From assembly GCA_964398815.1 (NCBI GenBank), contig CAYNNZ010000001.1, forward strand, positions 53,071 through 117,070: 64,000 nucleotides of DNA, given 5' to 3'. The notes under the pieces are model-generated. The model was not told the DNA's origin. It ran no database searches and worked only from the letters and a program-made list of their open reading frames with translations. Of this stretch, positions 4,312 through 60,342 are shown piece after piece; positions within the stretch are counted from its first letter, which is position 1, and each line of letters starts with the position of its first letter. The DNA comes from an uncultured Candidatus Saccharibacteria bacterium. Its GTDB lineage: Bacteria > Patescibacteriota > Minisyncoccia > Phycocordibacterales > Phycocordibacteraceae. The translations under genes were made by a program, and so were the position numbers.

Positions 4312-4783
4312 AGGTCATGGTGCGTGAGCCATTGGGTTCAGGAACAAGCGTTATGGAAATGTCTGGAACAGGAAGTGCGTCAGCGATGCGCTCCGGCCAC
4401 TCAATGATGATGAGATTCTTCGCATCGGCCGCAAGTGAATCGAACCCGAGCGCGGCGAGCTCAGCACCTCCATTCAAGCGATATGCGTCGATGTGCACGA
4501 GTTTTGAAAAAGAATCTTGGGACGGAAGTTCGTATATTTTCTCGAGTACAAATGTCGGGCTCGTTACCTGCTCGGTAACACCAAGCGCTCGCGCCACCTC
4601 CTGCGTAAACGTCGTCTTCCCTGCCCCGAGTTCGCCGGTAAGCGTAATGAGAGTCGCGCCCGCAGACTTCGGAGCAAGCCGCGCAACAAGCGACTGTGCC
4701 TCTTCTCGTACTGCTTCTATGTCGGCTATGCGCTTTTCCACTCCCCGATTGTACCTCCCAAAAGAAAAAGCGCCTGCAGCCAC
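4304..4783 (-). CDS. tsaE: tRNA threonylcarbamoyladenosine biosynthesis protein TsaE (YjeE P-loop ATPase)
   Basis: P-loop LTGELGAGKTTFTQ and a length of about 150 aa. The stop lies 2 nt upstream of the polA start. Confidence 0.7.
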   Translation of the reverse strand: MAAGAFSFGRYNRGVEKRIADIEAVREEAQSLVARLAPKSAGATLITLTGELGAGKTTFTQEVARALGVTEQVTSPTFVLEKIYELPSQDSFSKLVHIDAYRLNGGAELAALGFDSLAADAKNLIIIEWPERIADALPVPDISITLVPEPNGSRTMTYA

Positions 4784-4828
4784 ACGGGGTGACTACAGGC
4801 ACTTCTTGAGTTGAGCATGGCCCTCCAG

Positions 4829-5629
4829 CTAGCAGCGGCCGCAGCGATTGCCTCGGCCGAAGTAGAGAATCGTGCCGAGGATGGCCGCGACCCCGAAGCC
4901 AGTGGCGATACGCTCGCCATTGCTCGGGATTCGCTCCTCGTTGGTGCACTGGTAGCCTTCCCGGCCCTGGGTGCGTTCGCACCCGACCCGCCGAGTCATC
5001 GTGAGGCCGCTGTCGCGGCCGCGCTGCTGCTCGGGGGTGTTCGGACTTGCCTGCCACTGCGCCAGCTGCATTTGCTGGTCGAACGTCGGCCCTTGCGGGG
5101 CCGGCGGTTGCGGGGGCGGAGCCGGTTGCACGTAGGCAGCCGGCTGCACCTCGGGAGCGTAGACGGTTTGCTGAATCCCCACTTGCGCGGGGTTGCTGCC
5201 GACATACGCGCCGTCATAGGTGTACCAGTAGAACGGGACGTCCGACCGCCAGCGCGTGTTGTTCTGCGTCATGACGCCACAGCGGATTTGCTGCGAGCGG
5301 CCTTGGCAGGCCCAGTGGTCGCCGCGTGCGAGGACGAGTCCTCGCGGAAGCGGCGGATTCACCCATGCCTGAGCCGGCGGTGCCGGGGGCGGCGGAGGCG
5401 CCGAGGCAACAGCCACACGAGCCGGGGTCGGGGTGACCACGGGAGCGGGAGGCGACGGAGTCGTCGGAGCAGGGGTGGAGGCGACCGGGGTGGGCGCGAC
5501 CGTGTCCTGGTTGCCGGCGATGCGTTCGCTGAGCGACATGATGCCGTTCGTTTCGGCGAAGGCCGGCGCGGACGGGAGGAGGATGCTCAGAATGGAAAGA
5601 GCAACCAATCCTTTACGAAATTTAGACAT
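4829..5629 (-). CDS. secreted Pro/Ala-rich protein with C-terminal TM helix and Arg/Cys tail, in a GC-rich islet
   Basis: Signal peptide MSKFRKGLVALSILSILLPSAPAFA and proline-rich repeats. The C-terminus is GFGVAAILGTILYFGRGNRCGRC. Third codon positions are almost all G/C, unlike neighbouring genes. The opposite-strand ORF 4811..5632 is judged an artefact of high GC. Confidence 0.5.
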   Translation of the reverse strand: MSKFRKGLVALSILSILLPSAPAFAETNGIMSLSERIAGNQDTVAPTPVASTPAPTTPSPPAPVVTPTPARVAVASAPPPPPAPPAQAWVNPPLPRGLVLARGDHWACQGRSQQIRCGVMTQNNTRWRSDVPFYWYTYDGAYVGSNPAQVGIQQTVYAPEVQPAAYVQPAPPPQPPAPQGPTFDQQMQLAQWQASPNTPEQQRGRDSGLTMTRRVGCERTQGREGYQCTNEERIPSNGERIATGFGVAAILGTILYFGRGNRCGRC

Positions 5630-5737
5630 TGAGTGTCCTTTCGAGACAGAGTGATTGGATGTGCGTTAAATATCGCATATTTACACGTTTTGTCAAGTAC
5701 CCCAAAGCGAGGCTTTATGCGGTGGTATCATGCCTCC

Positions 5738-7414
5738 ATGCCCCTCCCATTCGATACAGACGCTGAAGACCAGAAACTCGCATCCCTCCGGGAGCGCGAG
5801 GAGGAAGACCTGGCGCATCTCCTCGCTGAGAAATACGACCTCTCCTACACCGACCTCACGATGGTCGCGATAAACATGGACGCGCTTCGACTTCTACCCG
5901 AAGCAAAAGCACGCGAGGCTGAGGCCGTGCTGTTTGATAAGAATGGAAAGCACCTCTCCATTGCGATGAAGAGTCCGCAGAACCCTGCTACTCCCCTTCT
6001 TCTTTCAGAACTCGAGAATGAGGGCTACCTATTGAATAAGTTCATGATTTCGCAGAAGAGCCTCGATCGTGCACTTGAGCGCTATGCGGATCTGTCTATG
6101 GCGTCTGAAAGCGAGGCGGGTGTGTTCTCGGTCGGAAAGGCTGAACTCGAGACGCTCGAAGAGAAACTCACAACCGTCCCAGCCTTCTCTGCACATCTCG
6201 CAGAACTTATGAGTGACCCGGCACACTCCCAAACCTCACGTCTCTTCGAGGAAATACTTGCCGCAGCATTTGCCATGCGCGCTTCGGACATACACATCGA
6301 ACCAGAGGAAGCGACTGTCCGCCTGCGCCTGCGTCTCGATGGCATCCTTACGGACGCGTACACCTTCGAGCCTGCTACCTATAAAGGTCTGTCGTCACGT
6401 ATCAAGCTGCTTTCGGGACTCAAGCTGAACGTGAACGACCGCGCACAGGATGGACGCTTCTCGGTTTCAGTTGGCGGCGCCGAAGTAGAGGTGCGTACCT
6501 CGGTCATTCCTGGTGGGTATGGGGAATCCATTGTGCTGCGCATCTTGGACCCACAAGCGATACAAGTGACCTTCGACTCCCTTGGTATTCATCCGAAGCT
6601 GCTCGCACGCCTCGAGGAAGAAATAAAGCGCCCGAATGGCATGTTGCTGACGACTGGCCCAACCGGCTCCGGCAAAACAACCACGCTCTATACGTTCCTG
6701 CGCCATATCCATACGCCGGACATAAAGATAATTACGATTGAAGACCCGATTGAGTACCACCTCCCTGGCATTGTGCAGACGCAGACCGATGGTAAAGAGT
6801 ACACATTCGCCTCTGGACTCCGTTCCATTCTGCGCCAGGACCCAGACGTAATCATGGTCGGAGAAATCCGTGATATGGAAGTTGCGGAGACTGCGATTCA
6901 GGCGGCACTCACCGGCCACTTCGTGTTTTCAACGCTGCACACTAATAACGCTGCCGGCACGTTCCCACGACTTTCAGACCTCGGTGCCGACCCGAAAGCA
7001 TTTGCTTCCGCAGTTACGGTCGCCATGGCTCAGCGACTCGTACGCAAACTCGACCCGGAGAAGCGCAAGCAGGTTCCGCTCGTAGGCGAACAGCGCGCGC
7101 TGGTGGAAAAAATAGTCGCAAGCATTGCAGACCCGGCGCTTGTCCCTGCTTCGCTCGACATGACGTGGGTGCCTGACACACAGGAGGGCGACGACATCAC
7201 GGTCGGCTACTCAGGACGTGTTGGCCTGTATGAGGCAATATTCATGGATGAACAGCTTGGCGAATTTCTGCGCAGTAATCCGAGCGAGGGCGAGATAGCA
7301 AAAGAAGTAGCACGCCAAGGCTTCCTCACCATGGCGCAGGACGGGGTGATTAAGGCATTGAACGGCATTACGTCGCTTGATGAGGTTTTCCGAGTCGTCG
7401 ACCTCCCCCACTAA
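5738..7414 (+). CDS. GspE/PilB-family secretion ATPase (type IV pilus / T2SS assembly ATPase paralogue)
   Basis: Walker A GPTGSGKTTTLY, a conserved Asp/His box region and an N-terminal GSPII_E_N-like domain. The probable start is the ATG at 5738 (MPLPFDTDAEDQ...). Confidence 0.85.
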   Translation: MPLPFDTDAEDQKLASLREREEEDLAHLLAEKYDLSYTDLTMVAINMDALRLLPEAKAREAEAVLFDKNGKHLSIAMKSPQNPATPLLLSELENEGYLLNKFMISQKSLDRALERYADLSMASESEAGVFSVGKAELETLEEKLTTVPAFSAHLAELMSDPAHSQTSRLFEEILAAAFAMRASDIHIEPEEATVRLRLRLDGILTDAYTFEPATYKGLSSRIKLLSGLKLNVNDRAQDGRFSVSVGGAEVEVRTSVIPGGYGESIVLRILDPQAIQVTFDSLGIHPKLLARLEEEIKRPNGMLLTTGPTGSGKTTTLYTFLRHIHTPDIKIITIEDPIEYHLPGIVQTQTDGKEYTFASGLRSILRQDPDVIMVGEIRDMEVAETAIQAALTGHFVFSTLHTNNAAGTFPRLSDLGADPKAFASAVTVAMAQRLVRKLDPEKRKQVPLVGEQRALVEKIVASIADPALVPASLDMTWVPDTQEGDDITVGYSGRVGLYEAIFMDEQLGEFLRSNPSEGEIAKEVARQGFLTMAQDGVIKALNGITSLDEVFRVVDLPH

Positions 7415-15578: not shown

Positions 15579-16313
15579 ATGGGAGATTTTTTCCACACCA
15601 TCCTCTACGTTCCGCTCTATAACCTTCTGGTGTTTCTCGTGGGAGTCATCCCGGGTGGAGACATCGGGGTTGCGGTTATCCTCGCAACCATAATCGTTCG
15701 CCTCCTTTTGTGGCCGCTTTCCATGAGCGCCGCGAAGACGCAGAAGGCAATGAAAACCATGCAGCCCGAAATGAAGGAGGTGCGCGAGAAGTACAAGAAC
15801 AATCAAGAGCTCCAGATGAAGGAAATGATGGCGCTCTACAAAAAATACGATGTCCATCCGTTCGCGAGCCTGTTGCCAGTATTCATACAACTCCCAATAG
15901 TCATCGGTCTCTACTGGGTGTTTCGTACCGAATCGCTCCCTGGTATCGATCAGGCCGTGCTCTATCCGTTTGTCCATTCACCGCTTGCCGCTTCGGCACT
16001 GTTCCTAGGCCTTATTTCGGTGACCAGCCATAGTATTCCGCTCGCCGCAGTCGCCGCGCTCTCCCAGCTGGCGCAGGCGTGGTACGCCATTCCGGTCCCC
16101 CCTGCTTCAACTGAGGCGACGTCTGCGGGAGATGATTTCGCACGGGCTATGGCACTTCAGATGCGTTTCGTACTCCCGGTAGTCATTGCATTCGTCGCAT
16201 ACGCTTCTGGCGCTATCGCGCTCTATTTCATAACGACCAACCTCGTCTCTCTCCTTCAGGAGTTCATTGTTCGCAGAACGGGAAACCCCACCCCTACCCC
16301 GGCCGCTGCTTAG
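15579..16313 (+). CDS. yidC: membrane protein insertase YidC (short form)
   Basis: Conserved YidC core (PLSMSAAKTQKAMKTMQPEMKEV...YKKYDVHPFASLLPVFIQLPIVIGLYWVF). The rpmH-rnpA-yidC arrangement supports the call. Confidence 0.85.
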   Translation: MGDFFHTILYVPLYNLLVFLVGVIPGGDIGVAVILATIIVRLLLWPLSMSAAKTQKAMKTMQPEMKEVREKYKNNQELQMKEMMALYKKYDVHPFASLLPVFIQLPIVIGLYWVFRTESLPGIDQAVLYPFVHSPLAASALFLGLISVTSHSIPLAAVAALSQLAQAWYAIPVPPASTEATSAGDDFARAMALQMRFVLPVVIAFVAYASGAIALYFITTNLVSLLQEFIVRRTGNPTPTPAAA

Positions 16314-17551
16314 AGATCGTACGCATAAAGCGCACCCGTATTCTTGTCTCTAAAGATAAGAACATCAGCAGTTCGATCGAGAGACAGTGCGGTCATATCG
16401 AGATCAGTGTTCGCTGCCTGCTTTGGGTCAATCACGAGCGACGCCACACGATCAGCGAGACCGATGCGCCACAAACGGTCTGAGAAATGAGTGACACCCT
16501 GATACCAATCATCAGGCTGGCTTCCGGTAAGAGTCGTGGGGACGCCGCAGTAAATGGACTGACTGTCGGGAGTCCACGCGCACTTATCAGGGAACGTAGC
16601 AAGCGGCAGGCGCGTTGCTACATGCGTCGTAAGGTCGAGGACTGCCAACGCCACCTTTCCTTGGTCAAGATAACTATAGAGAAGTGAATTCCCTGAGGGG
16701 CTTGGGAGCGTTGTCAGCGATTGGAGTGGTCCGAGCAAGCGAGTAAAGGAGCCAGATTTCGAGTCGACCAGGAAGGCGTATCCATCGCCATGCGCCGAGG
16801 CTTTTGTGGTTGCCACGAAATCAGCTCCAGCAAATGCGAGACGAATGGAAGAAAGCGGAGAGGTGAACAGTGTTCGTACACCGTTACCTGAAGGTGTTGA
16901 AATGGTCGCGGAGGAGCCGTCTCTCGTTGAGAGAAGGGTAACGAGAGTGCTGGTGCCGCGCACGAGCACTTGCTCGAGCCCACTCTCAAGGAAATAGCCA
17001 CCCTCCCCTACTGCTGGGAGCGCGTAGGTGCTTACGCGCTCTCCACCAGTCGTGCGCTCGAGGAAGCGCACAAACGCTTCCGAACCATCAGACAGCCACA
17101 CTGCTTCCTGAATACCCGGCAGTGTTTTATTCGAGAGACGCGTCAGGGTTCGTCCGTGCGCTTGGTATCCGTAGATATTTCCACTCTCGCGTTCGACATA
17201 CTCGATGCGCACATCTGGTTCGTATGCGGCGATAGGAGTGCCAGAAGCGGTCGAGGTGGCTGGGGTGAGGCCGGGCACATAGGTCGCCACACTCCCTACC
17301 GCTACAGGTCGGTCGCTAATGCGCACGAGTCTTGGCGCAATTTCAGTACCCGCTCCCGGAAGCGGTACACCCAATTCCTGAGTACTAATGTTCGTCGGAG
17401 TCTCGGTTACACCGGCAGTGTTCGAGTCAGGGAATGTGGCACCATTTCCCCCAGAAAGTGCGGGCCCCTTATTGAAGAACAGGAAATACGCACCCACTCC
17501 TATCAGAATGAGGAGGACGACTGCAGCGATGATAAGGAGTGTTCGTTTCAT
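16310..17551 (-). CDS. membrane-anchored hypothetical protein, predicted beta-propeller-like (last gene of the T4SS-like operon)
   Basis: N-terminal TM helix (MKRTLLIIAAVVLLILIGVGAYFLFF) and a repetitive beta-rich sequence. No recognisable catalytic motif. Its stop overlaps the yidC stop convergently. Confidence 0.5.
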   Translation of the reverse strand: MKRTLLIIAAVVLLILIGVGAYFLFFNKGPALSGGNGATFPDSNTAGVTETPTNISTQELGVPLPGAGTEIAPRLVRISDRPVAVGSVATYVPGLTPATSTASGTPIAAYEPDVRIEYVERESGNIYGYQAHGRTLTRLSNKTLPGIQEAVWLSDGSEAFVRFLERTTGGERVSTYALPAVGEGGYFLESGLEQVLVRGTSTLVTLLSTRDGSSATISTPSGNGVRTLFTSPLSSIRLAFAGADFVATTKASAHGDGYAFLVDSKSGSFTRLLGPLQSLTTLPSPSGNSLLYSYLDQGKVALAVLDLTTHVATRLPLATFPDKCAWTPDSQSIYCGVPTTLTGSQPDDWYQGVTHFSDRLWRIGLADRVASLVIDPKQAANTDLDMTALSLDRTADVLIFRDKNTGALYAYDL

Positions 17552-17553
17552 AG

Positions 17554-18522
17554 CTAATTACACATTGGCAAGTCTTTCACTGCATTCCATGCGGCTGCCG
17601 GGGTATGAGGATATGAACTATCGCAGGCTCGATTGAGTGCATACCCAGCTCGACTCGAGTTTACATTCATGTCAGCGGTACACGCAGCAAGGGTGGGAAA
17701 GTTGCGAGAAGTACTGTCCAGCCTGCAGTCGGCGCCAGTATCGTAGTTTATGTCCCGAGTACTTACGGTGTAATTGAATGTGCCAGTCCCTGCGTTCTGT
17801 GCAGCGACAGCTTGCTGTGCTGCGTTTGCGGCATTCACCGAATCGACTGCGCAACACGTTGCTCCGGCCGCCATTCCGCTGCAGCATTGAGCAGGAATTT
17901 CAGCATAGGTAGGTCCAAGTCGCTGCGCGCACGTCTGGTTCGTAGCGAGTGTCACCGCTTGTTTCTGTGGGCTTGTTTGGCAGATGCGCGCCGCTGCCGC
18001 TTCCGGTGTGTTGCCGGTGTACGCATCACTCGTGTTTTGTGAGTTCTGAATGACCTGTATTTCCGTCTGTAAATCCCTTGCGTTTATATCGATACGAAGG
18101 ATTGCCGGATTAATGATGCTAAACACGATGTACGGTGCGAGGACCAATATAAGTCCGACGATAGAGAGTGTTATGAGATTTCTCGCATCTTTCTTTTCAG
18201 TGACACTGTCGCCGCCCATGTACATGACACCGGCACGCATAAGCTGAAGCACGGCAAGCACCGCTGCCGCACCGATGCAGAGTTTGTAGAGTGTGGATAG
18301 GAATGTGGCGAGCGACGCCTGCGTCTGCACGTCTTGGAGCCCTGGCAAGGATGGGAGAAGAGGAACAAAATTCTGGGGTGTTTGGGACTGTGCGCTTGCA
18401 GGTGCTGCTCCTGCGGCTGTTGTAGGGGCGGCCGCTGGAGTTGCGGCAGGTTCAGCAAATACAAGCATGGGAGAAAGAGCGAGTACCGCAGTCAGCGCGA
18501 ACATAGCAAGGAAGCGTTTCAT
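17554..18522 (-). CDS. secreted hypothetical protein with two hydrophobic helices and a Cys-rich C-terminal domain (possible pilin/adhesin of the T4SS-like system)
   Basis: Signal peptide MKRFLAMFALTAVLALSPMLVFA. Hydrophobic hairpin (LATFLSTLYKLCIGAAAVLAVLQL...LITLSIVGLILVLAPYIVFSIINPAILRI) reminiscent of VirB2/TrbC topology. About 10 Cys in the last 130 aa. Confidence 0.45.
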   Translation of the reverse strand: MKRFLAMFALTAVLALSPMLVFAEPAATPAAAPTTAAGAAPASAQSQTPQNFVPLLPSLPGLQDVQTQASLATFLSTLYKLCIGAAAVLAVLQLMRAGVMYMGGDSVTEKKDARNLITLSIVGLILVLAPYIVFSIINPAILRIDINARDLQTEIQVIQNSQNTSDAYTGNTPEAAAARICQTSPQKQAVTLATNQTCAQRLGPTYAEIPAQCCSGMAAGATCCAVDSVNAANAAQQAVAAQNAGTGTFNYTVSTRDINYDTGADCRLDSTSRNFPTLAACTADMNVNSSRAGYALNRACDSSYPHTPAAAWNAVKDLPMCN

Positions 18523-18523
18523 A

Positions 18524-19498
18524 CTAGAAGCCGAATATATTAAAGGTCTTATTCGCACCGAACGCGATAGGTATCTGCATCGAAATATTCTGGTGCGTAT
18601 CACTTTGGCTGGCGGTGAGTGCGAGAATCGCATTCCCCTTCCCGGTGCCGGTCGTGCGTACGGTCACATCCTGATCGTTACTTGCCGACTGACCGCTCAC
18701 CGTCCAGGCAAGCGAAGGATTCTTTCCGAAGAAGTACCCGACAGCCCGGAACGCATCCTCCTGCGCGGTCATTGCGTATGTTCCCGATATGGCGTGGTCG
18801 AAATCAGGGCCCATGAGCGCGTCATTGTGGTAGATGCGCGCAACGGGATCGACTGGCGATACAGTCGTCGCAGACTGCGCAATAATGGTGGAGTCGGCGT
18901 TCGAGACGGTCACGGAAATCTGAGCATCGCGATACCGCATTGGGGCTGTGGCTATAAGTACGGAACGGCCTATCCCAGACTCAGCAGTAAGTATTCGGTC
19001 ACCCACCTTCCACGTATACACGAGCGCGCTCGCTGGAATACGAGCCGTTGGAGCGCTACGTAAGTCGGGTATAGCGATTATGCGCACCCTGCCCGTAACC
19101 GCAGTGAGCGAAGCGCCAGGATAGAGCGGATGGGTTGTAGATACGGGTTCTGAAATGAGCGCCACGTCAGCTGGGCGAAGAATGAGTTGCTTGGTGTACG
19201 TTTTTCCGTCCACCACCGCGGAAACGGAGATGGTCGTCCTTCCGCCCGGCCCCGCGACTGTTACCGGGATGCTCTGTGCGCCACTCCCCTTCACCACCAC
19301 CTTACCGTCGACCGAAACCGTCACGACGCTTCTGATAAGGTCGATACTCGAACTATCGGGCGTGACTGTAATGGTCTGATAGGGGCGCGGGTCCGTCGGA
19401 GAGATGACGATATTTACGTCTCCGTTCGAGAACTGGGCATGCACAGGCAAAGCAGTGAGGAGAAAAAGGACCGGTAAGAGAAATACGTACCGCTTCAT
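18524..19498 (-). CDS. secreted hypothetical protein (T4SS-like operon)
   Basis: Signal peptide MKRYVFLLPVLFLLTALPVHA. Repetitive Thr/Val-rich sequence, likely Ig-like beta domains. Tightly packed in the operon. Confidence 0.5.
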   Translation of the reverse strand: MKRYVFLLPVLFLLTALPVHAQFSNGDVNIVISPTDPRPYQTITVTPDSSSIDLIRSVVTVSVDGKVVVKGSGAQSIPVTVAGPGGRTTISVSAVVDGKTYTKQLILRPADVALISEPVSTTHPLYPGASLTAVTGRVRIIAIPDLRSAPTARIPASALVYTWKVGDRILTAESGIGRSVLIATAPMRYRDAQISVTVSNADSTIIAQSATTVSPVDPVARIYHNDALMGPDFDHAISGTYAMTAQEDAFRAVGYFFGKNPSLAWTVSGQSASNDQDVTVRTTGTGKGNAILALTASQSDTHQNISMQIPIAFGANKTFNIFGF

Positions 19499-19546
19499 TA
19501 CTGTGTAGTATACCGCCTCGAACTCTCCGAAAAACCACCCCTGGGG

Positions 19547-20500
19547 CTATTTCGCGATGTATTTCATGATGCCCGCCTCGTTCATCTGATCGAATGCGTA
19601 ATTAATGAGCTTCACCACCTTCGTCTCGCGGTAATGGGTCATAAGCACGAGGATGGTGGTCGCGGGTATTATTTTCCCGAATGGAATAATTTCGACAATC
19701 ACCTCGAAGAGGAAGCGCTTCCAGAACCACGTAATGATGAACTTCTTCCACCACCAACCCCCCATTTTATTGAATGACCAGACCGTAATAACGAGGTTTA
19801 TGAATACCGCGAGTATCGAAGTGATAATTACCCCAACGAGAGTGAAGTCAGCGAAGTCGATAGCATCCTTCAAAACCGCGAAGGAGACCATAATTATCGG
19901 AAAGTGTGGGAGCGGAGGGTTTTCCTCAACGGCTTTTTTTAATGTCTCCTCGTCAAATGACTCGCCCTGCTTATGAAACTCTTCGTCGATGGTGTCGAAT
20001 GTCTTGCGAACTGCTCCTCCAATGATATGTAGTGCCTGTTCATTTGAAGTAATGGTGTGACCTGCGAGTGGGTCAGTTCCTAAATTCCGCGACTCCGGGT
20101 CCTGTTGCGTTTTCTTCTGGCTCTGGGTTGGTGCACTACGCAGACGTTCGCGAGAAGCGCGCAAATCAACCACATTGTCCGCCTGTCTCGACGCTGACCG
20201 TGAGCCTACAGTCGCGGCGCGCTCAGCTGCCTGTTTTTCCTCCATGCGCCCAGCCACTTTGCCGGCGGCAAGTCCGGCTTTTTCAACTTCACCCACTCCA
20301 GACAGGTCGAGTGCGAGATTTCCTGCACCGAGCGCTGCTCTGCCGAGGCGTTCCCTGCCCGTAAGTGCGCGGCCGTCTAGGGTCCTGCCGCGAATGCCCT
20401 CAGCGATTTGTTTGCCACCTCCGACGAACGGCACAAGGTCAGCGCCCTCGCTCACCGCTTTTGGAACTTCTCCTTGCGGCTGTCGTGCGGGCTCAGCCAT
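19547..20500 (-). CDS. hypothetical membrane protein (T4SS-like operon)
   Basis: Ala/Gly/Arg-rich N-terminal region. The C-terminal third has TM helices and a Trp-rich segment (FNKMGGWWWKKFIITWFWKRF). The true start is uncertain. Confidence 0.45.
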   Translation of the reverse strand: MAEPARQPQGEVPKAVSEGADLVPFVGGGKQIAEGIRGRTLDGRALTGRERLGRAALGAGNLALDLSGVGEVEKAGLAAGKVAGRMEEKQAAERAATVGSRSASRQADNVVDLRASRERLRSAPTQSQKKTQQDPESRNLGTDPLAGHTITSNEQALHIIGGAVRKTFDTIDEEFHKQGESFDEETLKKAVEENPPLPHFPIIMVSFAVLKDAIDFADFTLVGVIITSILAVFINLVITVWSFNKMGGWWWKKFIITWFWKRFLFEVIVEIIPFGKIIPATTILVLMTHYRETKVVKLINYAFDQMNEAGIMKYIAK

Positions 20501-20503
20501 AGG

Positions 20504-22330
20504 CTAGGAGGCACCCGCAGTGTCACTCAATCGGTCCTTCTCGCGCTTTATCGCGAGAAGTTGAGATGGGTCGGAGGTAATAATCTGGTCCTCGGTGTAG
20601 GACGCAACGATTTTAATAGCGACATGCTTGAGACCAGCAAAGAAGAGTCCCTCACCTACTCCCGACTCGAGCAACAAGTATTTCTCCTGCTCAGTGAGAT
20701 TAAACGTGTCTTTAAGTACGTCGATGGTAGTTGGTGATTGCTTCAAGAGAAGCTGAATAGAAGAGTTCGTAAGAATAGGACGGCCATAAGGTGACTTCAA
20801 GAAGTCTTCAACGTCCTGTGTGATGGTGGCAAGCCCGAGGAAGTATTTGCGTCCGCGTTTTGCAAGCGAATAGAGGAAGGATGCGGTGTCTTCGCTCTTC
20901 ATCATCCACCATGCCTCGTCGATGACGAGCAAGCGTTTTTTGAGCTCGTGTCGCACCGCATTCCATATGTAATGCGTGATGATATACATCGCCACCGGCT
21001 TGAGTTCGTCCTCCATGTCGCGTACGGAAAAGACAATGAATTGCTTATCTATATCAATGTTCGTGGGTCGATTGATGAATCCGGCCCACGTGCCGTGGGT
21101 GTATTTAGAAAGACGCTGCAGGAGCGATTCGCTTCCCTCCATGCCACCGAGCACCTGTTCGAAGTCCGAGAGGAGCGGTGGTTCCATGCCGGTGAAATCA
21201 CGATCACCCGTAATGTCTTTGAGCGCATAGGTTTCGGTGACGGCGCGGTCGATGATTGCGTCCTCTTCCGGCGATAGGCCGCCAAGCATAATACGGAAGA
21301 GCCCGACGAGATTAATGATGTTACTGCGCAGAATATCGCCCGGCTCCTCGTCCTCCTTCACTGGCGGCAAATCGAATGGATTGATGTGGTGCTCGCTCGA
21401 AAGTGAGATGTTGAAGGTACGTCCCCCAGTCGCGTTCGCGAGATATTCGTACTCCTGCTCTGGATCGATGACGATGACGTCCGTGTCGAACATCAATGAA
21501 CGCAGAATTTCCAACTTAACCGCATAGGATTTACCGGAACCTGACTTTGCGAAGACGACCGAGTTGTAGTTCTCGAGCGAGAAACGGTCGAAAAGAATGA
21601 GTGAGGCGTTGTGGCGGTTTATGCCGAATAGAATGCCGCGGTCGCTCGTAAGGTCGAACGATACGAACGGAAAAAGCGAAGAAAGTGGCCCAGAATTAAG
21701 CTTGCTATTAACCGACAGTTCGTCGATAGCGAGCGGAAGTGTTGAGCGGAAGCCCTGTTCCTGCTGGAAGAGTGCCGGCTTGGTGTATACCAACTTTGCA
21801 TCGAGCAGTCCGCGCACTTCCCCTTCCGCCTTATCGAGCTCTTCTTTGGAGTTTGCGTAGAGCGTCAGGTAGAGCCCCACATCAAAGAGTTTTTCTTCTG
21901 CCTGCTGGAGCCGGTCACGCAGGTTTTCGAGGTCCTGATATGCGGTATCGAGAAGTGGGTCACGCACGAGGCCCTTGGTTTCCCTATCGGATATCTGACT
22001 CTGTACCTCAGCGACTTTGCGCTGGAAGTTGCGGAGTGCCTGCCCCGTCTCGATGGGGTGGATGAAAATAGCGATATCGAGTTGGCGCGCGAGGTTTACT
22101 ACCTGCATGAACCACCCATCCGTGAGGAAGCGCGGATAGGAAATGGTATAGAACGAGCGAGAGAATTTTTCCCCGAGCTCAATCTCCTTCGCGCTCACTT
22201 TGAGCGCTGCGGGCGCGATAGCATCCGCAAGGTCGAGCGCACCCTGCTTATAGATGTCGCTTGGAAGCACCGGAGTAATCTCCGGTAGTTCGTTTTTCTT
22301 CTTTCGTGCAAGGAAATCGAGTAATGCCAT
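20504..22330 (-). CDS. virB4: VirB4/TrbE/CagE-family type IV secretion ATPase (C-terminal 608 aa, including the ATPase domain)
   Basis: Walker A FAKSGSGKSY and Walker B LLVIDEAWWM. Overall VirB4 architecture. It lacks the N-terminal domain, which is encoded by the ORF immediately upstream. Confidence 0.85.
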   Translation of the reverse strand: MALLDFLARKKKNELPEITPVLPSDIYKQGALDLADAIAPAALKVSAKEIELGEKFSRSFYTISYPRFLTDGWFMQVVNLARQLDIAIFIHPIETGQALRNFQRKVAEVQSQISDRETKGLVRDPLLDTAYQDLENLRDRLQQAEEKLFDVGLYLTLYANSKEELDKAEGEVRGLLDAKLVYTKPALFQQEQGFRSTLPLAIDELSVNSKLNSGPLSSLFPFVSFDLTSDRGILFGINRHNASLILFDRFSLENYNSVVFAKSGSGKSYAVKLEILRSLMFDTDVIVIDPEQEYEYLANATGGRTFNISLSSEHHINPFDLPPVKEDEEPGDILRSNIINLVGLFRIMLGGLSPEEDAIIDRAVTETYALKDITGDRDFTGMEPPLLSDFEQVLGGMEGSESLLQRLSKYTHGTWAGFINRPTNIDIDKQFIVFSVRDMEDELKPVAMYIITHYIWNAVRHELKKRLLVIDEAWWMMKSEDTASFLYSLAKRGRKYFLGLATITQDVEDFLKSPYGRPILTNSSIQLLLKQSPTTIDVLKDTFNLTEQEKYLLLESGVGEGLFFAGLKHVAIKIVASYTEDQIITSDPSQLLAIKREKDRLSDTAGAS

Positions 22331-22335
22331 AGGTG

Positions 22336-22995
22336 TTATGCGGTTGGCTGTCCTACCCCTCCCCCGTCGAGACGGATGGGGCTTTCCATTTCGCCCACAT
22401 TAAAGGAGCGATACAGAAGTTCGATGAGTTCTTCTGTCGAAAGTGGCACAGCGCGAATGCCGGCAGCATTCAATCCCGCCGCAACAAGCGACATGCGCTG
22501 CTCCAACTGCACACGGTCCTCTTCGAATGTGTCCGCGCCGCCCTCTGGTCGCTGCGCAGGTCGTTTCCTTCCTGGAATTGGAAGGGAATCTGCAACCTTA
22601 AGGCCAAGCGCCGGAGTGTACGGAACCACGACGTAGAACAATTTCGACATGATTTCCGTGGTGTCCATGAATCCGCGGATGAACTGTATGTACTCGCGTA
22701 ACTGAATGCGCATCAATTCTGACTGCTGCGCGTCCAGTCGCTGTTCGAGAAGCGCGAGATAGGGACGAATGTCCATTTTGCGAGAGTGCACCACGATTTC
22801 AACAGAGAAATCGAGCGTATTGAGGAAGGACTGGAAGCCGCCAATGATTGCTGCCTGCTCATCTTCGGACTTGAGGGCGAAGTTCATGGAAGAGCACATC
22901 ATGATGCCGCGATACCCATCATCCTTGAGGATAACTACGCCGTTTCGTACCTCCTTTACCGGAACAAAGGCCTGGGTTGCTTTAGTGTCAGCCAT
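22336..22995 (-). CDS. virB4: VirB4 N-terminal domain encoded as a separate ORF (split gene or frameshift)
   Basis: VPVKEVRNGVVILKDDGYRGIMMCSSMNFALKSEDEQAAIIGGFQSFLNTLDFSVEIVVHSRKMD matches the conserved N-terminal region of Gram-positive-type VirB4 proteins. Only 5 nt separate it from the ATPase ORF. A C4TC5 run at 22357-22366 lies where both frames are open. Confidence 0.6.
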   Translation of the reverse strand: MADTKATQAFVPVKEVRNGVVILKDDGYRGIMMCSSMNFALKSEDEQAAIIGGFQSFLNTLDFSVEIVVHSRKMDIRPYLALLEQRLDAQQSELMRIQLREYIQFIRGFMDTTEIMSKLFYVVVPYTPALGLKVADSLPIPGRKRPAQRPEGGADTFEEDRVQLEQRMSLVAAGLNAAGIRAVPLSTEELIELLYRSFNVGEMESPIRLDGGGVGQPTA

Positions 22996-22996
22996 A

Positions 22997-23416
22997 TTAT
23001 GGGGCCGCTGGCGGCTGATTCTGGTCTTTTATATCGAGCGAAAGTGCCAAATCATGGAGCTTTCCCTGATTCATCGTAAGTTTCTGACGCACTTCTACGG
23101 CCTCTGGCGCTGGGGCGGCTGCCTCAGCCTTAGGCTGCTCTTTTTTCCAGAGATAGAGGCGGCCTTTCGTGTAGTAGTTAAATCCTGCTTCGAGCACTTC
23201 GATGAATGGCTTACTGTTTATTTTAAGAAACGCGAGAGAGCCCGCGAGCGCGGCGACGGGGGCAATGAGAATGAGCGCCAGAAACAGCGGCTTCACATAG
23301 AGAAAGAGAACAACGGACAATCCAACACCGCCACCAATATAGATGAATTGCTTCAGGGTAAACGGACCGAATATCCTATCTTCAACTTCGATGAATTGCG
23401 GTACCTGGTATTCCAT
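22997..23416 (-). CDS. PrgI/VirB3-like small membrane protein
   Basis: MEYQVPQFIEVEDRIFGPFTLKQFIYIGGGVGLSVVLFLYV plus a second TM helix. This matches the PrgI-family pattern usually encoded just upstream of virB4. Recalled family signature, not searched. Confidence 0.5.
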   Translation of the reverse strand: MEYQVPQFIEVEDRIFGPFTLKQFIYIGGGVGLSVVLFLYVKPLFLALILIAPVAALAGSLAFLKINSKPFIEVLEAGFNYYTKGRLYLWKKEQPKAEAAAPAPEAVEVRQKLTMNQGKLHDLALSLDIKDQNQPPAAP

Positions 23417-23446
23417 CACTACCAGTATACCCGACGTGCACACGCG

Positions 23447-24241
23447 CTATTCAACAGGTTCGCGATACGGGTCGACGCTATATGACTTCACTACGGGTGC
23501 ACCAGGAAGATTAGCTGGAGGTGGCGGCATAGGACGCACGGGAGCAATCTGCGGGGGTGGTGCAGGCGGCATAGGTGGAGGAGTAACCACCTGTGGAGGT
23601 GCAGCCGGCACTATCGGAGGGGTGGTGTGCGCGACTGAGATTGGCTCGGGCATGCGATGTTCCCGCACCGCCTCAATGTCGGTGGCCATGGTGCGCATCT
23701 GAGGGTGGTACTCCCCTGCTGGTATTGCTGGCGCCGGTGTAGGTGGAGGTGTTGGAACGACCGGTGCGGGCGGCGGTACAACGGAAACTGGTGCGGGTGC
23801 GGGAACTGCCGTAGGTGTAGGAGGAGTCAGTGGCTCTTCGGTGGCTACTGAGCTAATGGTAGTGGGCTGATAGGTTTCAACTAAATCACGTCGAGCCTCA
23901 ACTATTTCCTCTGCCGAATCTTCATCTTCCTCCTTAAAATTTCGCACCCGTTCACGAACAGGGATAAATATCTCCTCATTCAGGCTCGCCAAAATCTTCT
24001 TGGCAGTTTCGGAATCTATACCCGCCATTACTAGCTCGCCGAGCGTTTCAGCAGGGCTTTGTAAACCCATAAGCATGTAGGTTGCGGACTTCGAAAGCGT
24101 CCCACTTACATCGACATGAAGATTGTTGCGTGCAGCGATGCCGCCAAGCGTACGAGCCAAGTCATCCTCAAGAAGATACGCTCGAATCGGCTTCGGAAGC
24201 CCATTAAACGCGGCAGTATATTGCTGATTGGAGATTTCCAT
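23447..24241 (-). CDS. proline-rich hypothetical protein (T4SS-like operon)
   Basis: Structured N-terminal approximately 110 aa, followed by long PxP repeats (PPTPTAVPAPAPVSVVPPPAPVVPTPPPTPAP...). Native-like codon usage. Confidence 0.45.
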   Translation of the reverse strand: MEISNQQYTAAFNGLPKPIRAYLLEDDLARTLGGIAARNNLHVDVSGTLSKSATYMLMGLQSPAETLGELVMAGIDSETAKKILASLNEEIFIPVRERVRNFKEEDEDSAEEIVEARRDLVETYQPTTISSVATEEPLTPPTPTAVPAPAPVSVVPPPAPVVPTPPPTPAPAIPAGEYHPQMRTMATDIEAVREHRMPEPISVAHTTPPIVPAAPPQVVTPPPMPPAPPPQIAPVRPMPPPPANLPGAPVVKSYSVDPYREPVE

Positions 24242-24244
24242 ACT

Positions 24245-26959
24245 CTATTTATGCCAGTAGGTGTCGGCAACTCCGCTCTTTGCAAACCACGCATTGATGC
24301 TTGCGCTATTCGGATGTTTTGCGTCGCGGACTGCCGCTGCCACCTTACGGATATCTTCGTCATCGAATTTAGATTCACGCTGGAGTTCCGTCAGGTCAGC
24401 AACGGTAAATGAGGCAATAACGGTCGGGTGTAGGAGCGCGGTCGACGAGAGCTTAGCCTTATTTTTAGAATTGAGGGTGGTTGCGAAGCGCTTAATTTTT
24501 TCGTCCTCTTCAATAGCGGCTGCCATGTCTCCTGCAGCCAAGAGACGGTTATAGTCGCCAACTGCAGCCTCAACCTGACCCTTACGGCTGTGGGTGTAGA
24601 CCAGGTCTCGCTGATTTTTCGTAAGTGAACTATTTTTCCCAAGGAATTCATTTTGATCGCTAGAAATAATGCTTTCGCCATTCTTTGGATCTGTTTTCTT
24701 AAGCAGCTGCTCGAAGGTAACGGCGTCGTACTTAGCAAGCATCTCCAGTTCTTTGTTGTTGAGGCCACGAACTGTATCCTTACCAGCGCTGTACTCGCCA
24801 GCAACCGCCGCCTTAATACCGTCAAACCGCGCCCCCGAAATGTCCTTTTTCTGGACCGCGTTCAACTTGTCGCTCTCCATAAGCTTCTGGAACTGATCAG
24901 GCGATAGGTTGTTTATAAGAGCGCCAACTCCGTGCTGGATATCGTGCATTGCCGCAAGTTCGTCAGTGGAAAGACCTGCCAAGAATCGCTGGTTTTCAGG
25001 AGAAAGCTCAATAACTTTTCCTGTCTTCGGGTCGATCTTCCCTGCTTCGATGTCCTTAACCTGTTTCTTAAGGTCGATAAGTGCAACTTCCTTATTATAT
25101 TGAGCATCGTTCTTCTGCATCTTGTCGTGAACATCATGTATCTGGTGCTGCATATCGCCCAGCGTTGCGTGTTCAGCAGGACCACCCGCGACCTTACTGA
25201 TGGCGCCCATACCAGGTACGGCCCAGTTACGGATATCCGTATTCGCGTTCTCAATTGGCCGTAACATATTGTTCGTGACAAAACGTGTGATGCCTAAGTT
25301 CCCTACCGGAGACCTCTGAAGTGAGGTGCGAGCCACGCGTGCCGCACCATTCGTTACGGTATTCGATACGCGCGCCATGCCGCCGAAGACAACAGCACCC
25401 GCCATCTTTGTCGCCGCGGAAGAGCCGATTGCACTCATGTCCTTTGCGGTCTGGGTAGCTGCAAGCAAGAAGCCGACCATGAGGATGAACATTACAACAA
25501 TGCTGACATTACTAATGCCACCACTTGAAATTGCGCTTGCGAGCGTTGTGGTTTCCGAACCGAGCGACACGCGCATCCCGTCAACGAATTTCACTGCGAC
25601 GAGCACCATCAATATGTAGACCGGAGCGTAGAATGCCTGCTTCAAAAGCTGGTCCCACCACATCTTTGCGAACTTATGTAGTATCGGCACTGCCATTCCA
25701 GCGAACCCAATCGGAGACACTGCCATGAGGAAAGCGAGTGTGACTGCGCGAATTGAAAGCATGATGGTCGCAGCAAGCAGAACCATCGCGAGGGTTGCTA
25801 CGAATATGGTCAGCCCAATCATAATGAGCGCATTCTGAACATTTGAATCAGTAAAAACAGTTATGCCATCCGCAGGATTGAAGATGGTAGTGATGCCCGT
25901 AATCTGCATGATGGCCCCCGCGATGCCACTTTCTGTCGCGCACCTATATAGGTCTGAGGCGTCCGTACAGAGTCCGTTCCCAGCCTGGCGGTAGAGCGTG
26001 CTTCCGAGGGCGTTACTAGTATCTATGATTGCCTCCGCAGCGAAGAGGCTGAAGTTCATTAAAATCGCGAAGATAATGAGCGTCGGCAGTGCACGTTTGG
26101 CAGTAAATTCATTGCCGGGCAGGTTCAGGATGGTGCTGATACCCATGAAAATAAATCCGAAGAGAAGGAGGATGTTCCCTATGTCGCGAAGAATGCCCCA
26201 TGCGGCAAGCATGCCGGGGTTATTTCCGATGAGGTTTCCGAACTGAAAGACTGTGATGTAGATGGTCCAGTTGAAAATGATGCCCACGAGGCCGAGGAAG
26301 AACGCAGCAAGCCAGAGGAAGAAGAGCGCCACTCGCTTAACGACTTCGTAGACCAGGTCCCCGACACAGGGCCAGATGTTGCCCGGAATATTACATTGCG
26401 AGTGCGCCTCAGCGACCGCTGCGGCAGCGGTTTGAGTTTCACTAACTTGTGCTTGGGCCGCGGCCGCATTATTTACATCAGCCGAGCCTGAGGCGACAGG
26501 TGCGTTTGCGTTAGTAGTTACATTATTACCGGTCGTCGCTTGGCTCGTAGCGGCCGTTTGAGGCACGGTGCGTGGGTAGCCTGTAGTGGTGACGTTCGCT
26601 CGCGTACTGGTATTGAGAATTCTCTCGGTCTGTGTTGGCGGATTGGCATCAGAGTCGAAATTAACGTAAAGACTTGTTCCGTCAGTGTACTGAATTTCGC
26701 ACGTACCATTCTCTTCTCTTGCATTAGCCTCGGTTGATGACATCTGCACCGCTGTTCCCTCAGTTATGACGGTGTACCAGCAATGAATGCCATTACTTTT
26801 AGGAGTTTTCCCCGCAGGCGTTTGGAATGCTGCGAGCGCTGTGTGTGGTGTGAAGAATGAAACAACAAGAACGAGAGCCCCAAGAAGGAGTGTCTTCTTC
26901 ACCGGGTCTTTCCAGACAAACGTCATGGCCTTAGGTGCCGCACTGAGCTTGAGCAGCAA
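24245..26959 (-). CDS. VirB6/TrbL-like polytopic membrane protein with an approximately 480-aa C-terminal hydrophilic extension
   Basis: 904 aa. N-terminal secreted region, then a central block of at least 6 TM helices (FFLWLAAFFLGLVGIIF..., LLLFGFIFMGISTIL..., IMIGLTIFVATLAMVLLAATIML..., YAPVYILMVLVAVKF...). The C-terminal charged domain is long. The VirB6 assignment is by topology and context only. Confidence 0.55.
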   Translation of the reverse strand: MLLKLSAAPKAMTFVWKDPVKKTLLLGALVLVVSFFTPHTALAAFQTPAGKTPKSNGIHCWYTVITEGTAVQMSSTEANAREENGTCEIQYTDGTSLYVNFDSDANPPTQTERILNTSTRANVTTTGYPRTVPQTAATSQATTGNNVTTNANAPVASGSADVNNAAAAQAQVSETQTAAAAVAEAHSQCNIPGNIWPCVGDLVYEVVKRVALFFLWLAAFFLGLVGIIFNWTIYITVFQFGNLIGNNPGMLAAWGILRDIGNILLLFGFIFMGISTILNLPGNEFTAKRALPTLIIFAILMNFSLFAAEAIIDTSNALGSTLYRQAGNGLCTDASDLYRCATESGIAGAIMQITGITTIFNPADGITVFTDSNVQNALIMIGLTIFVATLAMVLLAATIMLSIRAVTLAFLMAVSPIGFAGMAVPILHKFAKMWWDQLLKQAFYAPVYILMVLVAVKFVDGMRVSLGSETTTLASAISSGGISNVSIVVMFILMVGFLLAATQTAKDMSAIGSSAATKMAGAVVFGGMARVSNTVTNGAARVARTSLQRSPVGNLGITRFVTNNMLRPIENANTDIRNWAVPGMGAISKVAGGPAEHATLGDMQHQIHDVHDKMQKNDAQYNKEVALIDLKKQVKDIEAGKIDPKTGKVIELSPENQRFLAGLSTDELAAMHDIQHGVGALINNLSPDQFQKLMESDKLNAVQKKDISGARFDGIKAAVAGEYSAGKDTVRGLNNKELEMLAKYDAVTFEQLLKKTDPKNGESIISSDQNEFLGKNSSLTKNQRDLVYTHSRKGQVEAAVGDYNRLLAAGDMAAAIEEDEKIKRFATTLNSKNKAKLSSTALLHPTVIASFTVADLTELQRESKFDDEDIRKVAAAVRDAKHPNSASINAWFAKSGVADTYWHK

Positions 26960-28442
26960 GCTGATTCATTTGCATGACGATGGTCGTGCCGTTTGTGGAC
27001 GTCGGTTGCGCTTGGGCTTCTGCGTAGAGCAAATCGCTTGGCGTTGGCCTCGTGTTTGCCCTGAGGAACGCGTCGTAACTAGTATTCGCCTGCCCTATTG
27101 CAGCTGCCTGAGCGCTCGCTGAAAGTGTGGCCGAATTGATTATTGTTGTTCGAATCGTATCGAGGGCTGCAATTTGTTGAGGTGTTGAACCAATCACCTG
27201 CGCTGCCTGAGCAAGTATTGGGTTGATTTGCGTGGAGATAATCGTGGCCGAATTCGGCGTGCAGGTAGAGTTCTGCAGCGCACCCTTTGCAGCCTGCGCC
27301 GCTGCGTTTATAGCCTGCCAGTTCGCGTAGTATGACTGAAGCGCGTTCAGTTTTTCACTAATAACTCCTGCGGACGTGCCGGCGAGTGCGATGCCGGAAG
27401 AGGCCTGTGTAGTGCTCTGAGTGTCCGGCTGGGTGAAATAATCTCGTCCGCCGGTCGCAGTGGAGCCGCGCGAAAGCCCGGCAAGCCCGGTTGCTCCGAC
27501 CACCTGCTGCATAAGCTGGCCCATGAGTGCGTTCACGAGTTCGTTGATTTCATCGGCTTGCACGAGTTCATCAGTCCCAAGCCCGAGCGAGTGGTTTATC
27601 TGCCCGGCAAGCACCGACCCCGGAGTTTCGATGTGGCTTGCGAGACAGGTCTGATGCGGTGTGAGATCAATGTTAACGGTGCCGTCAGACCCCGTCGTAG
27701 TATTACCGCTTCCTTCGAATGTGGTAGAAGTGAGGTCACATCTGCGCCACGAGAAGAACCCGCCACCATTCGCAACCTCCTCATGAAGTTGTGCGCCTAC
27801 CGCAGCGACGCGTCTATCTAATTCCGATTGGAGCAACTGCCGTGCGCCCAAATAATTATTCTGCGGATTAAGAACGGCTTCGGTCCATGCTCGAAGACCT
27901 CCCTGCCTAATGTCTCCTCGTGAAAATGCTGCTGGATCGTCGCTCACCCGATTCAAGGTGTACGGATTACGGATGAAGAAACTATCTGCGTTAGTTCCGA
28001 TGTAGTAAGCGCGGAGTACCGACTGAGCGATTTCATTTTGGAATGGGGACTCGATTTCAAGATTATTTTCCAGTTGATTAAAGAAGTCATTCGTCGCTTG
28101 ATCCGCTGCGTCTTGAATAGTGGCCCGTAGGTCAGTTGCGAAGGCAGGTGAGCCCTGGAAGCCAGTGTTTATCCAATTCACGGTGCTTCGGACAATGGAC
28201 TGTATGGCAATCCGGCCGATAGCCACCGCTGCACCGTCCAGCGTGAACTCCTTTATGTTGAGGGCGTTGCTGAGCGACTGAATCGCTGCGGTCGACACGG
28301 AAGTGATAATCGCTCGTGCGACTTGGATAGGACTATCGTAGTCAGCGGCCTGTACCGGTCTCGGGGCAATTGAGAAAACGATGGCAAAAGCCACCACCAG
28401 CGCAGCGATCTTCTTTACAAATGCGGGGCGGGAGGAGTTCAT
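26931..28442 (-). CDS. secreted hypothetical protein (T4SS-like operon)
   Basis: Signal peptide MNSSRPAFVKKIAALVVAFAIVFSIAPRPVQA. 503 aa, Ala/Gln/Thr-rich. No recognisable domain. Confidence 0.5.
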   Translation of the reverse strand: MNSSRPAFVKKIAALVVAFAIVFSIAPRPVQAADYDSPIQVARAIITSVSTAAIQSLSNALNIKEFTLDGAAVAIGRIAIQSIVRSTVNWINTGFQGSPAFATDLRATIQDAADQATNDFFNQLENNLEIESPFQNEIAQSVLRAYYIGTNADSFFIRNPYTLNRVSDDPAAFSRGDIRQGGLRAWTEAVLNPQNNYLGARQLLQSELDRRVAAVGAQLHEEVANGGGFFSWRRCDLTSTTFEGSGNTTTGSDGTVNIDLTPHQTCLASHIETPGSVLAGQINHSLGLGTDELVQADEINELVNALMGQLMQQVVGATGLAGLSRGSTATGGRDYFTQPDTQSTTQASSGIALAGTSAGVISEKLNALQSYYANWQAINAAAQAAKGALQNSTCTPNSATIISTQINPILAQAAQVIGSTPQQIAALDTIRTTIINSATLSASAQAAAIGQANTSYDAFLRANTRPTPSDLLYAEAQAQPTSTNGTTIVMQMNQLAAQAQCGT

Positions 28443-41156: not shown

Positions 41157-41423
41157 TTACTTCTTCAAACCGAGCTTCTTGATAAGTGCCGAATAGCGAC
41201 GCTTGTCATTCTTCTCAAGGTAGCGCAGGTGCGCGCGACGGTCGGCGACCATCTGCAAGAGGCCGCGGCGGCTGTGGAAGTCCTTCTGATTCTTCTTCAG
41301 GTGCTTCGTCAGCTCGTCGATTTGGCGCGACAAAACCGCCACCTGGACCTCGGGAGAACCCGTATCCTTCTCGTGACGTGCGGAATCCTTGATTACTCCG
41401 GTCTTTACCTTCTTCGTAAGCAT
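41157..41423 (-). CDS. rpsO: 30S ribosomal protein S15
   Basis: MLTKKVKTGVIKDSARHEKDTGSPEVQVAVLSRQIDELTKHLKKNQKDFHSRRGLLQMVADRRAHLRYL is the S15 signature. The ATG at 41423 is preferred over the upstream extension. Confidence 0.9.
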   Translation of the reverse strand: MLTKKVKTGVIKDSARHEKDTGSPEVQVAVLSRQIDELTKHLKKNQKDFHSRRGLLQMVADRRAHLRYLEKNDKRRYSALIKKLGLKK

Positions 41424-59078: not shown

Positions 59079-59079
59079 T

Positions 59080-60297: not shown

Positions 60298-60342
60298 AGA
60301 ACGGTGTTTATTCGCCAGTCTACGCCGTAAGAGAAGATACGC

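Follow-up and report, generated by a model that had tools for sequence, protein, structure and literature searches.

Several described systems place a hydrophobic segment and a basic tail at the C-terminus of a surface protein. Substrates of the LPXTG sortases combine a signal peptide with a motif ending in TG, a short hydrophobic stretch and a basic tail. Proteins of the PEP-CTERM/exosortase and GlyGly-CTERM/rhombosortase systems end in a hydrophobic helix followed by Arg residues, and both of these systems are known from diderm bacteria. In monoderm bacteria, ActA of Listeria is an example of a Pro-rich surface protein that is anchored by a C-terminal transmembrane (TM) segment. Here we describe a gene for a 266-aa Pro-rich protein, encoded on the minus strand of a 64,000-nucleotide stretch of contig CAYNNZ010000001.1 (hereafter the window). 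The initial annotation had described it as a horizontally acquired surface protein within an islet rich in guanine plus cytosine (GC). Our analysis favors, with moderate confidence, a native and lineage-restricted orphan envelope-protein gene of a Kaiserbacteria-like member of the Patescibacteria/Paceibacteria, which is fast-evolving, probably well expressed and C-terminally anchored.

The protein shares with LPXTG sortase substrates all four of the elements listed above; however, its pentapeptide is RIATG or RIGTG, it matches no anchor model and the window encodes no sortase. The helix followed by Arg residues is common to the protein and to the two diderm systems, but the PEP motif of the first and the GG that precedes the helix in the second are both missing, neither set of models matches, and neither an exosortase nor a rhomboid is encoded in the window. 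With ActA-type proteins it would share the signal peptide, extended Pro-rich spacers, one C-terminal hydrophobic anchor, a short basic cytoplasmic tail and the lack of LPXTG. It differs from them in having no sequence or fold similarity, in being much smaller, in its two putatively Cys-stapled hairpins and CxxC tail, and in coming from an uncultivated Patescibacterium. A further comparison is with genomic islands and atypical ORFans, which the gene resembles in its narrow distribution and in a sharp peak of GC and of GC at third codon positions (GC3) that is confined to one gene. Unlike them, it has no mobility genes, repeats or tRNA target, it retains its position and, to an equal degree, its atypical composition in diverged relatives, and its codon bias parallels that of native highly expressed genes.

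To place the gene among its relatives, we compared it with sequence collections of increasing breadth. Among 5.8 billion protein clusters only two homologues were found, P0001 (97% identical) and P0002 (66% identical by BLASTP, 76% over the columns aligned by MAFFT). A further allele, 93% identical, was recovered from a Joint Genome Institute (JGI) scan on contig L087, which is too short to show the neighbors. The genes pilB and tsaE flank it in L001, L002 and L005, the contigs that show both neighbors, while the shorter contigs L003, L004 and L087 show one neighbor or none. In an exhaustive HMMER profile search, covering 1.84 billion representatives, only P0003 (E = 4e-6) and a weak match to P0004 came up beyond the known family; no relatives of the protein were found among the GTDB representative genomes or among viral contigs. 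P0003 is an 85–90 aa remnant of the C-terminal half, lacking both signal peptide and Cys, and is encoded at L086:876-1148 (metagenome-assembled genome GCA_964578515.1), in a relative more distant than the others. There it follows a minus-strand gene and stands directly upstream of tsaE and polA, the TsaE being approximately 65% identical to that of the window as estimated by eye. These features suggest that the gene is decaying in the L086 lineage.

The unusual composition is shared by these relatives. Orthologue GC is 0.679 in L001, against 0.537 for the locus, and 0.674 in L005, against ~0.545, and even the remnant in L086 has a GC3 of 0.733, compared with 0.50–0.58 in its flanks. Related orthologues with the same composition are thus present in the same slot, an outcome that the initial annotation had itself named as one that would refute its view, and the gene has occupied the slot between pilB and tsaE since before the split of the window, L005 and L086 lineages. 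Nonsynonymous (dN) and synonymous (dS) divergence was calculated against L005. Core residues 72–205 gave dN 0.056 and dS 0.55 (dN/dS ~0.1), the C-terminal third gave dN 0.33 and dS 0.58, and the spacer at residues 26–85 was essentially unalignable, with saturated dS. All indels relative to the orthologues preserve the frame and, together with the core dN and dS values, this establishes a protein-coding gene with a constrained core. Purifying selection acts on the core, in contrast to the fast evolution of the spacer and of the juxtamembrane region. Since dS in the flanking genes is 0.29–0.52, comparable to that of the core, the gene has diverged together with its neighbors, and its unusual composition has persisted for longer than a foreign one would be expected to last. 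The claim of horizontal acquisition is therefore not supported.

We nevertheless considered a gene taken from a GC-rich donor, either through an ancestor of the clade or by recurrent replacement at a hot spot, with the donor composition retained. In its favor, the gene has the highest GC and GC3 of the window, the family is limited to a narrow clade, and a mosaic breakpoint falls within the gene. Different orphan genes also occupy the same slot in L006, L007, L009 and other relatives, and many slot orphans deviate far from the GC3 of their hosts in either direction. On the other hand, the collections named above contain no donor homologue. No integrase, adjacent tRNA, flanking direct repeats or insertion scars were found around the gene, where only short chance repeat matches occur. 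The anomaly is undiminished in L005 and in the L086 remnant, unlike the amelioration of an old import, and the codon bias follows that of native highly expressed genes. Taken together with the matching dS of core and flanks, these points make acquisition unlikely.

The compositional peak itself is real, as the initial annotation had stated. GC reaches 0.686 in the bin 4801–5600, with all other 800-nt bins between 0.487 and 0.611, and the gene has a GC of 0.682, compared with a mean of 0.547 (sd 0.026, maximum 0.607) for 47 other window genes; its GC3, 0.785, is likewise the highest in the window. The amino-acid content explains a part of this. The GC predicted from amino-acid content and background synonymous usage is 0.618, so that Pro, Ala, Gly and Arg supply about half of the excess. 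The earlier claim that amino acids alone do not explain the bias holds, given that the protein's own amino acids, with synonymous codons used as in the background, predict a GC3 of only 0.603 (z = 6.2). With the codons for Pro, Ala and Gly left out, GC3 is still 0.777 against a background of 0.614. Pro codons ending in A or T number 3/37, as opposed to 65/116 in the two Pro-rich window genes that had been named for comparison (Fisher p = 1e-7). Every subregion shows the GC3 excess except the signal-peptide codons.

The remaining excess consists of avoidance of A-ending codons and preference for C- and G-ending ones, in the same direction as in rpsO, clpP and nusA, genes that are expected to be well expressed. 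These have the next-highest GC3 values: 0.753 for rpsO (measured separately), 0.752 for clpP (the top of the 47 genes) and 0.695 for nusA. Like them, the gene prefers GGC, ATC, CTC, GTC, ACC, GAC, TAC and CCG, and it uses no ACA, GTA, ATA, CCA or TCA codons, all of which are rare in the three genes. C stands at the third position in 0.44 of its codons, 0.43 of those of clpP plus nusA and 0.32 of those of the remaining genes, and the codon-preference log-ratios of the gene and of clpP plus nusA are correlated (Spearman 0.43, p = 9e-4). By codon adaptation index (CAI), with rpsO, HU, clpP and nusA as reference, the gene ranks 5/50. Across window genes CAI against these genes tracks GC3 (rho 0.74), which suggests an expression-linked preference for C/G-ending codons in the host genome. 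The codon bias of the gene may accordingly be a sign of high expression, and this is the least certain step of our explanation. Composition thus speaks both ways on acquisition: the gene is the extreme of the window, yet the amino acids account for a GC of 0.618, native rpsO and clpP reach a GC3 of 0.75 and the bias runs in their direction.

The position of the gene was then examined across related genomes. The PilB-like neighbor has relatives with 46–76% identity in 80 genomes of Patescibacteria/Paceibacteria (Kaiserbacteria, Adlerbacteria, Zambryskibacteria and others), and most of these keep the order holA←polA←tsaE, pilB→ruvB. The gap between tsaE and pilB is either shorter than ~200 bp or filled by an open reading frame (ORF) with the orientation of tsaE. 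Of these slot ORFs, 23/32 begin with a signal-peptide-like sequence or a lipobox, compared with 14% of other ORFs at the same loci (Fisher p = 2e-12). Across Paceibacteria the gap is often taken by a single small and lineage-specific gene for an exported protein or a lipoprotein, for example L022:5376-5816, L009:4241-4798 and L080:2564-3502. In 17 of the 28 loci with slot genes of 90–310 aa, GC3 exceeds the expectation from flank usage (z > 2), as in L022 (0.62 vs 0.32) and L080 (0.61 vs 0.34). The shift is mainly a halving of A at the third position (A3); where the slot holds a large surface protein, the deviation is reversed. The islet of the window is one case of this recurrent property of the slot. 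Homology of slot proteins to the window protein or to each other was not detectable.

Based on these loci, we tentatively propose that the site between tsaE and pilB is a conserved hypervariable "exported-protein cassette". It would hold lineage-specific small genes for signal-peptide proteins or lipoproteins that avoid A-ending codons and have a GC3 far above that of their neighbors even at 35–40% GC. Very high expression or biased gene conversion would maintain this state, and the cassette could be tied to the adjacent orphan PilB-like ATPase; as a whole, we regard this generalization as doubtful. A link between the window protein and the slot proteins of L006, L013 and others was sought and rejected, with BLASTP, hmmsearch and hhalign all non-significant. 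The alignment with the L006 protein is collinear (REG.Y..C...PS.G.R.A...VAA..G.I), with a probability of only 0.8%, and the L006 slot protein is itself an orphan. L006 (JBLNCF010000007.1), from the closest GTDB genome, is labelled "Bacillota bacterium" and shares the Paceibacteria holA-polA-tsaE, pilB-ruvB synteny, its proteins being 63–85% identical to those of the window; the label is probably wrong.

The data from the slot also bear on an explanation that concerns composition only and is compatible with a native origin. A local process could keep GC3 high, such as GC-biased gene conversion at a recombination hot spot of a diversifying surface-protein gene. Relative to contig L001, the window changes from complete to approximately 90% identity inside the gene, the less similar segment running from its 3' part through tsaE, polA and holA, and L087 and P0001 also look like mosaic alleles. 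In the small slot genes with raised GC3, G and C at the third position (G3 and C3) both increase, and in the window gene G3 is raised as well as C3 (0.34 vs 0.27 for G3). However, the L001 breakpoint reflects either recombination or a strain-chimeric metagenome assembly. Moreover, tsaE and polA lie across the breakpoint as well and yet have ordinary GC3, and the normal GC3 of the signal-peptide codons fits translational effects better than a regional process. We therefore consider a local process of this kind quite unlikely as the cause of the composition.

The ORF reported by the initial annotation exists, and its translation agrees with the description, including the N-terminus MSKFRKGLVALSILSILLPSAPAFA and the C-terminus GFGVAAILGTILYFGRGNRCGRC. 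The gene stands back to back with the gene of the PilB-like T2SSE ATPase (5717..7414, plus strand), and tsaE, polA and a holA-like gene follow downstream on the minus strand. Its promoter, located in the 87-nt divergent region common to the gene and pilB, matches the consensus hexamers at 10/12 positions with TG before the -10 element, one site being found against 0.3 expected in shuffled sequences. The Shine-Dalgarno-like AAAGGA noted earlier was found ahead of the start (5641..5636). On the other side, the terminator hairpin, which a simple scan had missed, has a 19-bp stem with dG -36.1 kcal/mol (z = -2.55). Because near-consensus promoter, Shine-Dalgarno sequence and terminator hairpin are all present, the gene forms its own transcription unit. 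Coordinates of all features are given in Table 1.

Table 1. Features of the orphan gene and related sites in the window (positions are those of the window).
Feature	Position	Strand	Details
Coding sequence, 266 aa, orphan exported Pro-rich protein	4829..5629	-	In-frame indels relative to orthologues; core dN/dS ~0.1
Predicted signal peptide, residues 1-25	5555..5629	-	MSKFRK, hydrophobic core, AFA-ET motif; Kyte-Doolittle hydropathy KD-15 = 2.09; codon GC3 0.60
Hypervariable Pro/Thr/Ala-rich spacer, residues 26-85	5375..5554	-	Indels between orthologues; weak 9- and 15-nt repeats
Conserved core, residues 86-160	5150..5374	-	Nearly invariant; Cys108, Cys117, FYWYTYDG motif
Pro/Gln-rich linker and two short predicted helices, residues 161-205	5015..5149	-	Alignment, AlphaFold2 (AF2)
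Fast-evolving juxtamembrane segment, residues 206-240	4910..5014	-	Cys217/Cys228 hairpin; AF2 strands 213-219 and 226-232
C-terminal hydrophobic segment, residues 241-258, IATGFGVAAILGTILYFG	4856..4909	-	KD-15 2.06, KD-19 1.45; AF2 helix 247-256, low confidence
Basic Cys-containing tail RGNRCGRC, residues 259-266	4832..4855	-	3 Arg
Sigma-70-like promoter	5669..5696	-	TTGACA, 16-nt spacer, TG-extended GATATT; ~40 nt upstream of ATG
Shine-Dalgarno-like AAAGGA	5636..5641	-	Six bases before ATG; read from sequence
Strong hairpin with A-tract and U-tract, read as intrinsic terminator	4765..4807	-	Between the gene and tsaE
Antisense ORF, 273 aa, judged a non-gene	4811..5632	+	Codons are exact reverse complements of sense codons
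Mosaic breakpoint relative to contig L001	4958..5000	.	100% identical from 15500 down to ~5000 (~10.5 kb); ~90% from there to 1260
rpsO, clpP, nusA	41157-41423, 53541-54152, 55071-56471, respectively		Highest GC3 in the window after the orphan gene

The islet limits given originally, 4811..5632, are those of the antisense ORF, with the gene itself correctly placed at 4829..5629. We examined whether this plus-strand ORF could be the true gene, or the islet a structured RNA. The antisense ORF does run the full length of the islet, and RNA genes often form GC-rich islets in genomes of lower GC. Nonetheless, the sense frame has a core dN/dS of ~0.1 with every indel in frame, and its product carries a signal peptide and a C-terminal anchor, as predicted. 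The antisense ORF is a by-product of the sense gene, because the latter has no TTA, CTA or TCA codons. An identity as non-coding RNA was rejected, as Rfam matched no RNA in the islet or in 11 other slots, with only tRNAs elsewhere. The possibility that the islet holds no sense gene is effectively refuted. In GC-rich islets such as 4811-5632, gene callers could choose the wrong strand.

The predicted protein is organized as an N-terminal signal peptide, a hypervariable spacer, a conserved core, a linker, a fast-evolving juxtamembrane segment and a hydrophobic C-terminus with a basic tail. A heuristic reading of the N-terminus agrees with the signal peptide proposed earlier and, from the motif, predicts cleavage after AFA25. 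Annotation as an exported surface protein fits this sequence as well, and among the real ORFs of the window no other ends in a hydrophobic segment with a basic tail. An AF2 model, built from a three-sequence alignment, gave a beta-rich core with a predicted local distance difference test (pLDDT) of 63–72 and strands or hairpins at residues 105–120 and 134–145. Foldseek comparison of this model to the PDB gave no match below E = 2.6, leaving the fold uninformative. Searches of the protein against Pfam, NCBIfam and PHROGs returned nothing meaningful; the best matches were a Pro-rich low-complexity model (E = 2.4), another at E = 0.99 and a Zot-like model (E = 0.011). In the literature on Patescibacteria, sortases and surface proteins we found nothing bearing on the protein. 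Residues ~120–156 of the core (RWRSDVPFYWYTYDGAYVGSN) weakly match seven Ig-like/cadherin-like repeats (NWSGNTSFSWKGSDGTEYSSN) of the 1251-aa protein P0004 (E = 6e-4). This match is a hint only: the core could resemble the last strands of an Ig-like/cadherin-like domain, or the similarity could be due to chance.

At the C-terminus, the hydrophobic segment and the basic tail described by the initial annotation are present, and their assignment to an exosortase- or rhombosortase-type system found no support. The pentapeptide before the hydrophobic segment is RIATG in the window protein and P0001, and RIGTG in P0002. A cleavable sorting signal would consist of GERI[AG]TG, the short hydrophobic helix and the basic tail, recognized by a sortase-like or undescribed enzyme that links the protein with the wall or a lipid. 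Such a signal would agree with the three-part layout and with a hydrophobic segment of only ~15–18 residues. It would also agree with the retention of ERI[AG]TG and GNRC..C between the window protein and L005 within an otherwise fast-evolving C-terminal region; GNRC..C is kept across the full-length orthologues. In addition, sortase substrates do occur in the slot, as the Paceibacterium L065 has a slot protein with a canonical signal.

Several results speak against a sorting signal. RIATG and RIGTG lack the Leu and the Pro or Ala of LPXTG or LAXTG, a regex scan of the tail found no LP.TG, LA.TG or NP.TG, and there is no PEP and no GG. NCBIfam sorting-domain models gave no matches at E <= 10 to the whole protein or to isolated tails. 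The check for a cognate enzyme, carried out on the 64-kb window with Pfam on ~40 proteins and a TLxTC motif scan for sortase, detected no sortase, exosortase or rhomboid. Among the real ORFs of the window no second one has such a tail, and the remnant P0003 contains neither the motif nor Cys. When the 40-aa tail served as query in a word-based search of the 5.8-billion-protein database, a test that detects near-identical tails only, no candidate emerged. On balance, a cleavable sorting signal appears unlikely, and a stop-transfer anchor with a positive-inside tail would be the simpler reading.

Other proteins of the slot show C-terminal signals of their own. The L065 slot protein (L065:2846-4228) ends in LPATG, a TM segment and KNKAR, a canonical sortase signal. 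The large slot proteins L056:2646-4589, L072:1430-3922 and L076:1450-4257 share G-[FL]-[FM]-P-x-x-L-[LI]-G-W-L, after which come a TM segment and a basic tail. The shared C-terminal motif might be an uncharacterized anchoring signal.

If the gene is indeed a native envelope-protein gene, its product would probably be exported by the Sec system, and the signal peptide would then be cut after AFA25. The part exposed outside the cell would comprise the Pro/Thr/Ala-rich spacer, the small, conserved and beta-rich core, and a second hairpin stapled by Cys, the topology and the disulfides being predicted from the protein layout. The short hydrophobic segment and the Arg-rich cytoplasmic tail would hold the protein in the membrane in a type I topology. 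Its role could be that of a surface spacer or an adhesin-type protein at the interface of the cell with a host or with the environment.

Several observations weigh against this interpretation as a native, well expressed and anchored protein. The GC3 of the gene lies above that of every other gene measured in the window, and it also uses codons that the reference genes disfavor (CGG, 0.20 vs 0.01; CAA, 0.37 vs 0.06) and takes GCC/GCT rather than GCA, unlike those genes. The high-expression reference set comprises only four genes, two of which were first noticed for their GC3. The family does not extend beyond a very narrow clade, and in L006, the closest relative in GTDB, an unrelated orphan occupies the slot; this pattern would permit gene replacement at the site. 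The AF2 model is poor, with a mean pLDDT of 50. Finally, the hydrophobic segment is short, with a KD-19 of 1.45 that falls below the usual 1.6, and would suit a cleaved sorting signal equally well as a stable anchor.

Elsewhere in the window, positions 16310-29449 hold a cluster of genes for secreted or membrane proteins, most of which defy annotation, among them a VirB4/TraG-like ATPase (20504-22330), a weak match to a type IV secretion system pilin (17554-18633) and a TSP3-repeat protein. The cluster may encode an apparatus for type IV secretion or one resembling a conjugation system. Further along, at 57318-62079, a second type IV pilus set comprises pilB2, pilC and a CarboxypepD_reg protein.

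For the islet, these results give no evidence of recent gene import and no pointer to an exosortase- or rhombosortase-type system, which removes a false lead. What they describe is a lineage-specific, probably abundant surface protein of an ultrasmall bacterium that is uncultivated. Such proteins are likely mediators of contact with the host or the environment and are invisible to homology-based annotation. If the pattern holds in whole genomes, the slot with its unrelated small exported proteins of raised GC3 would be a positional marker for fast-evolving envelope proteins of Paceibacteria. It would also offer a test case for the drivers of gene-specific GC3 in reduced genomes.

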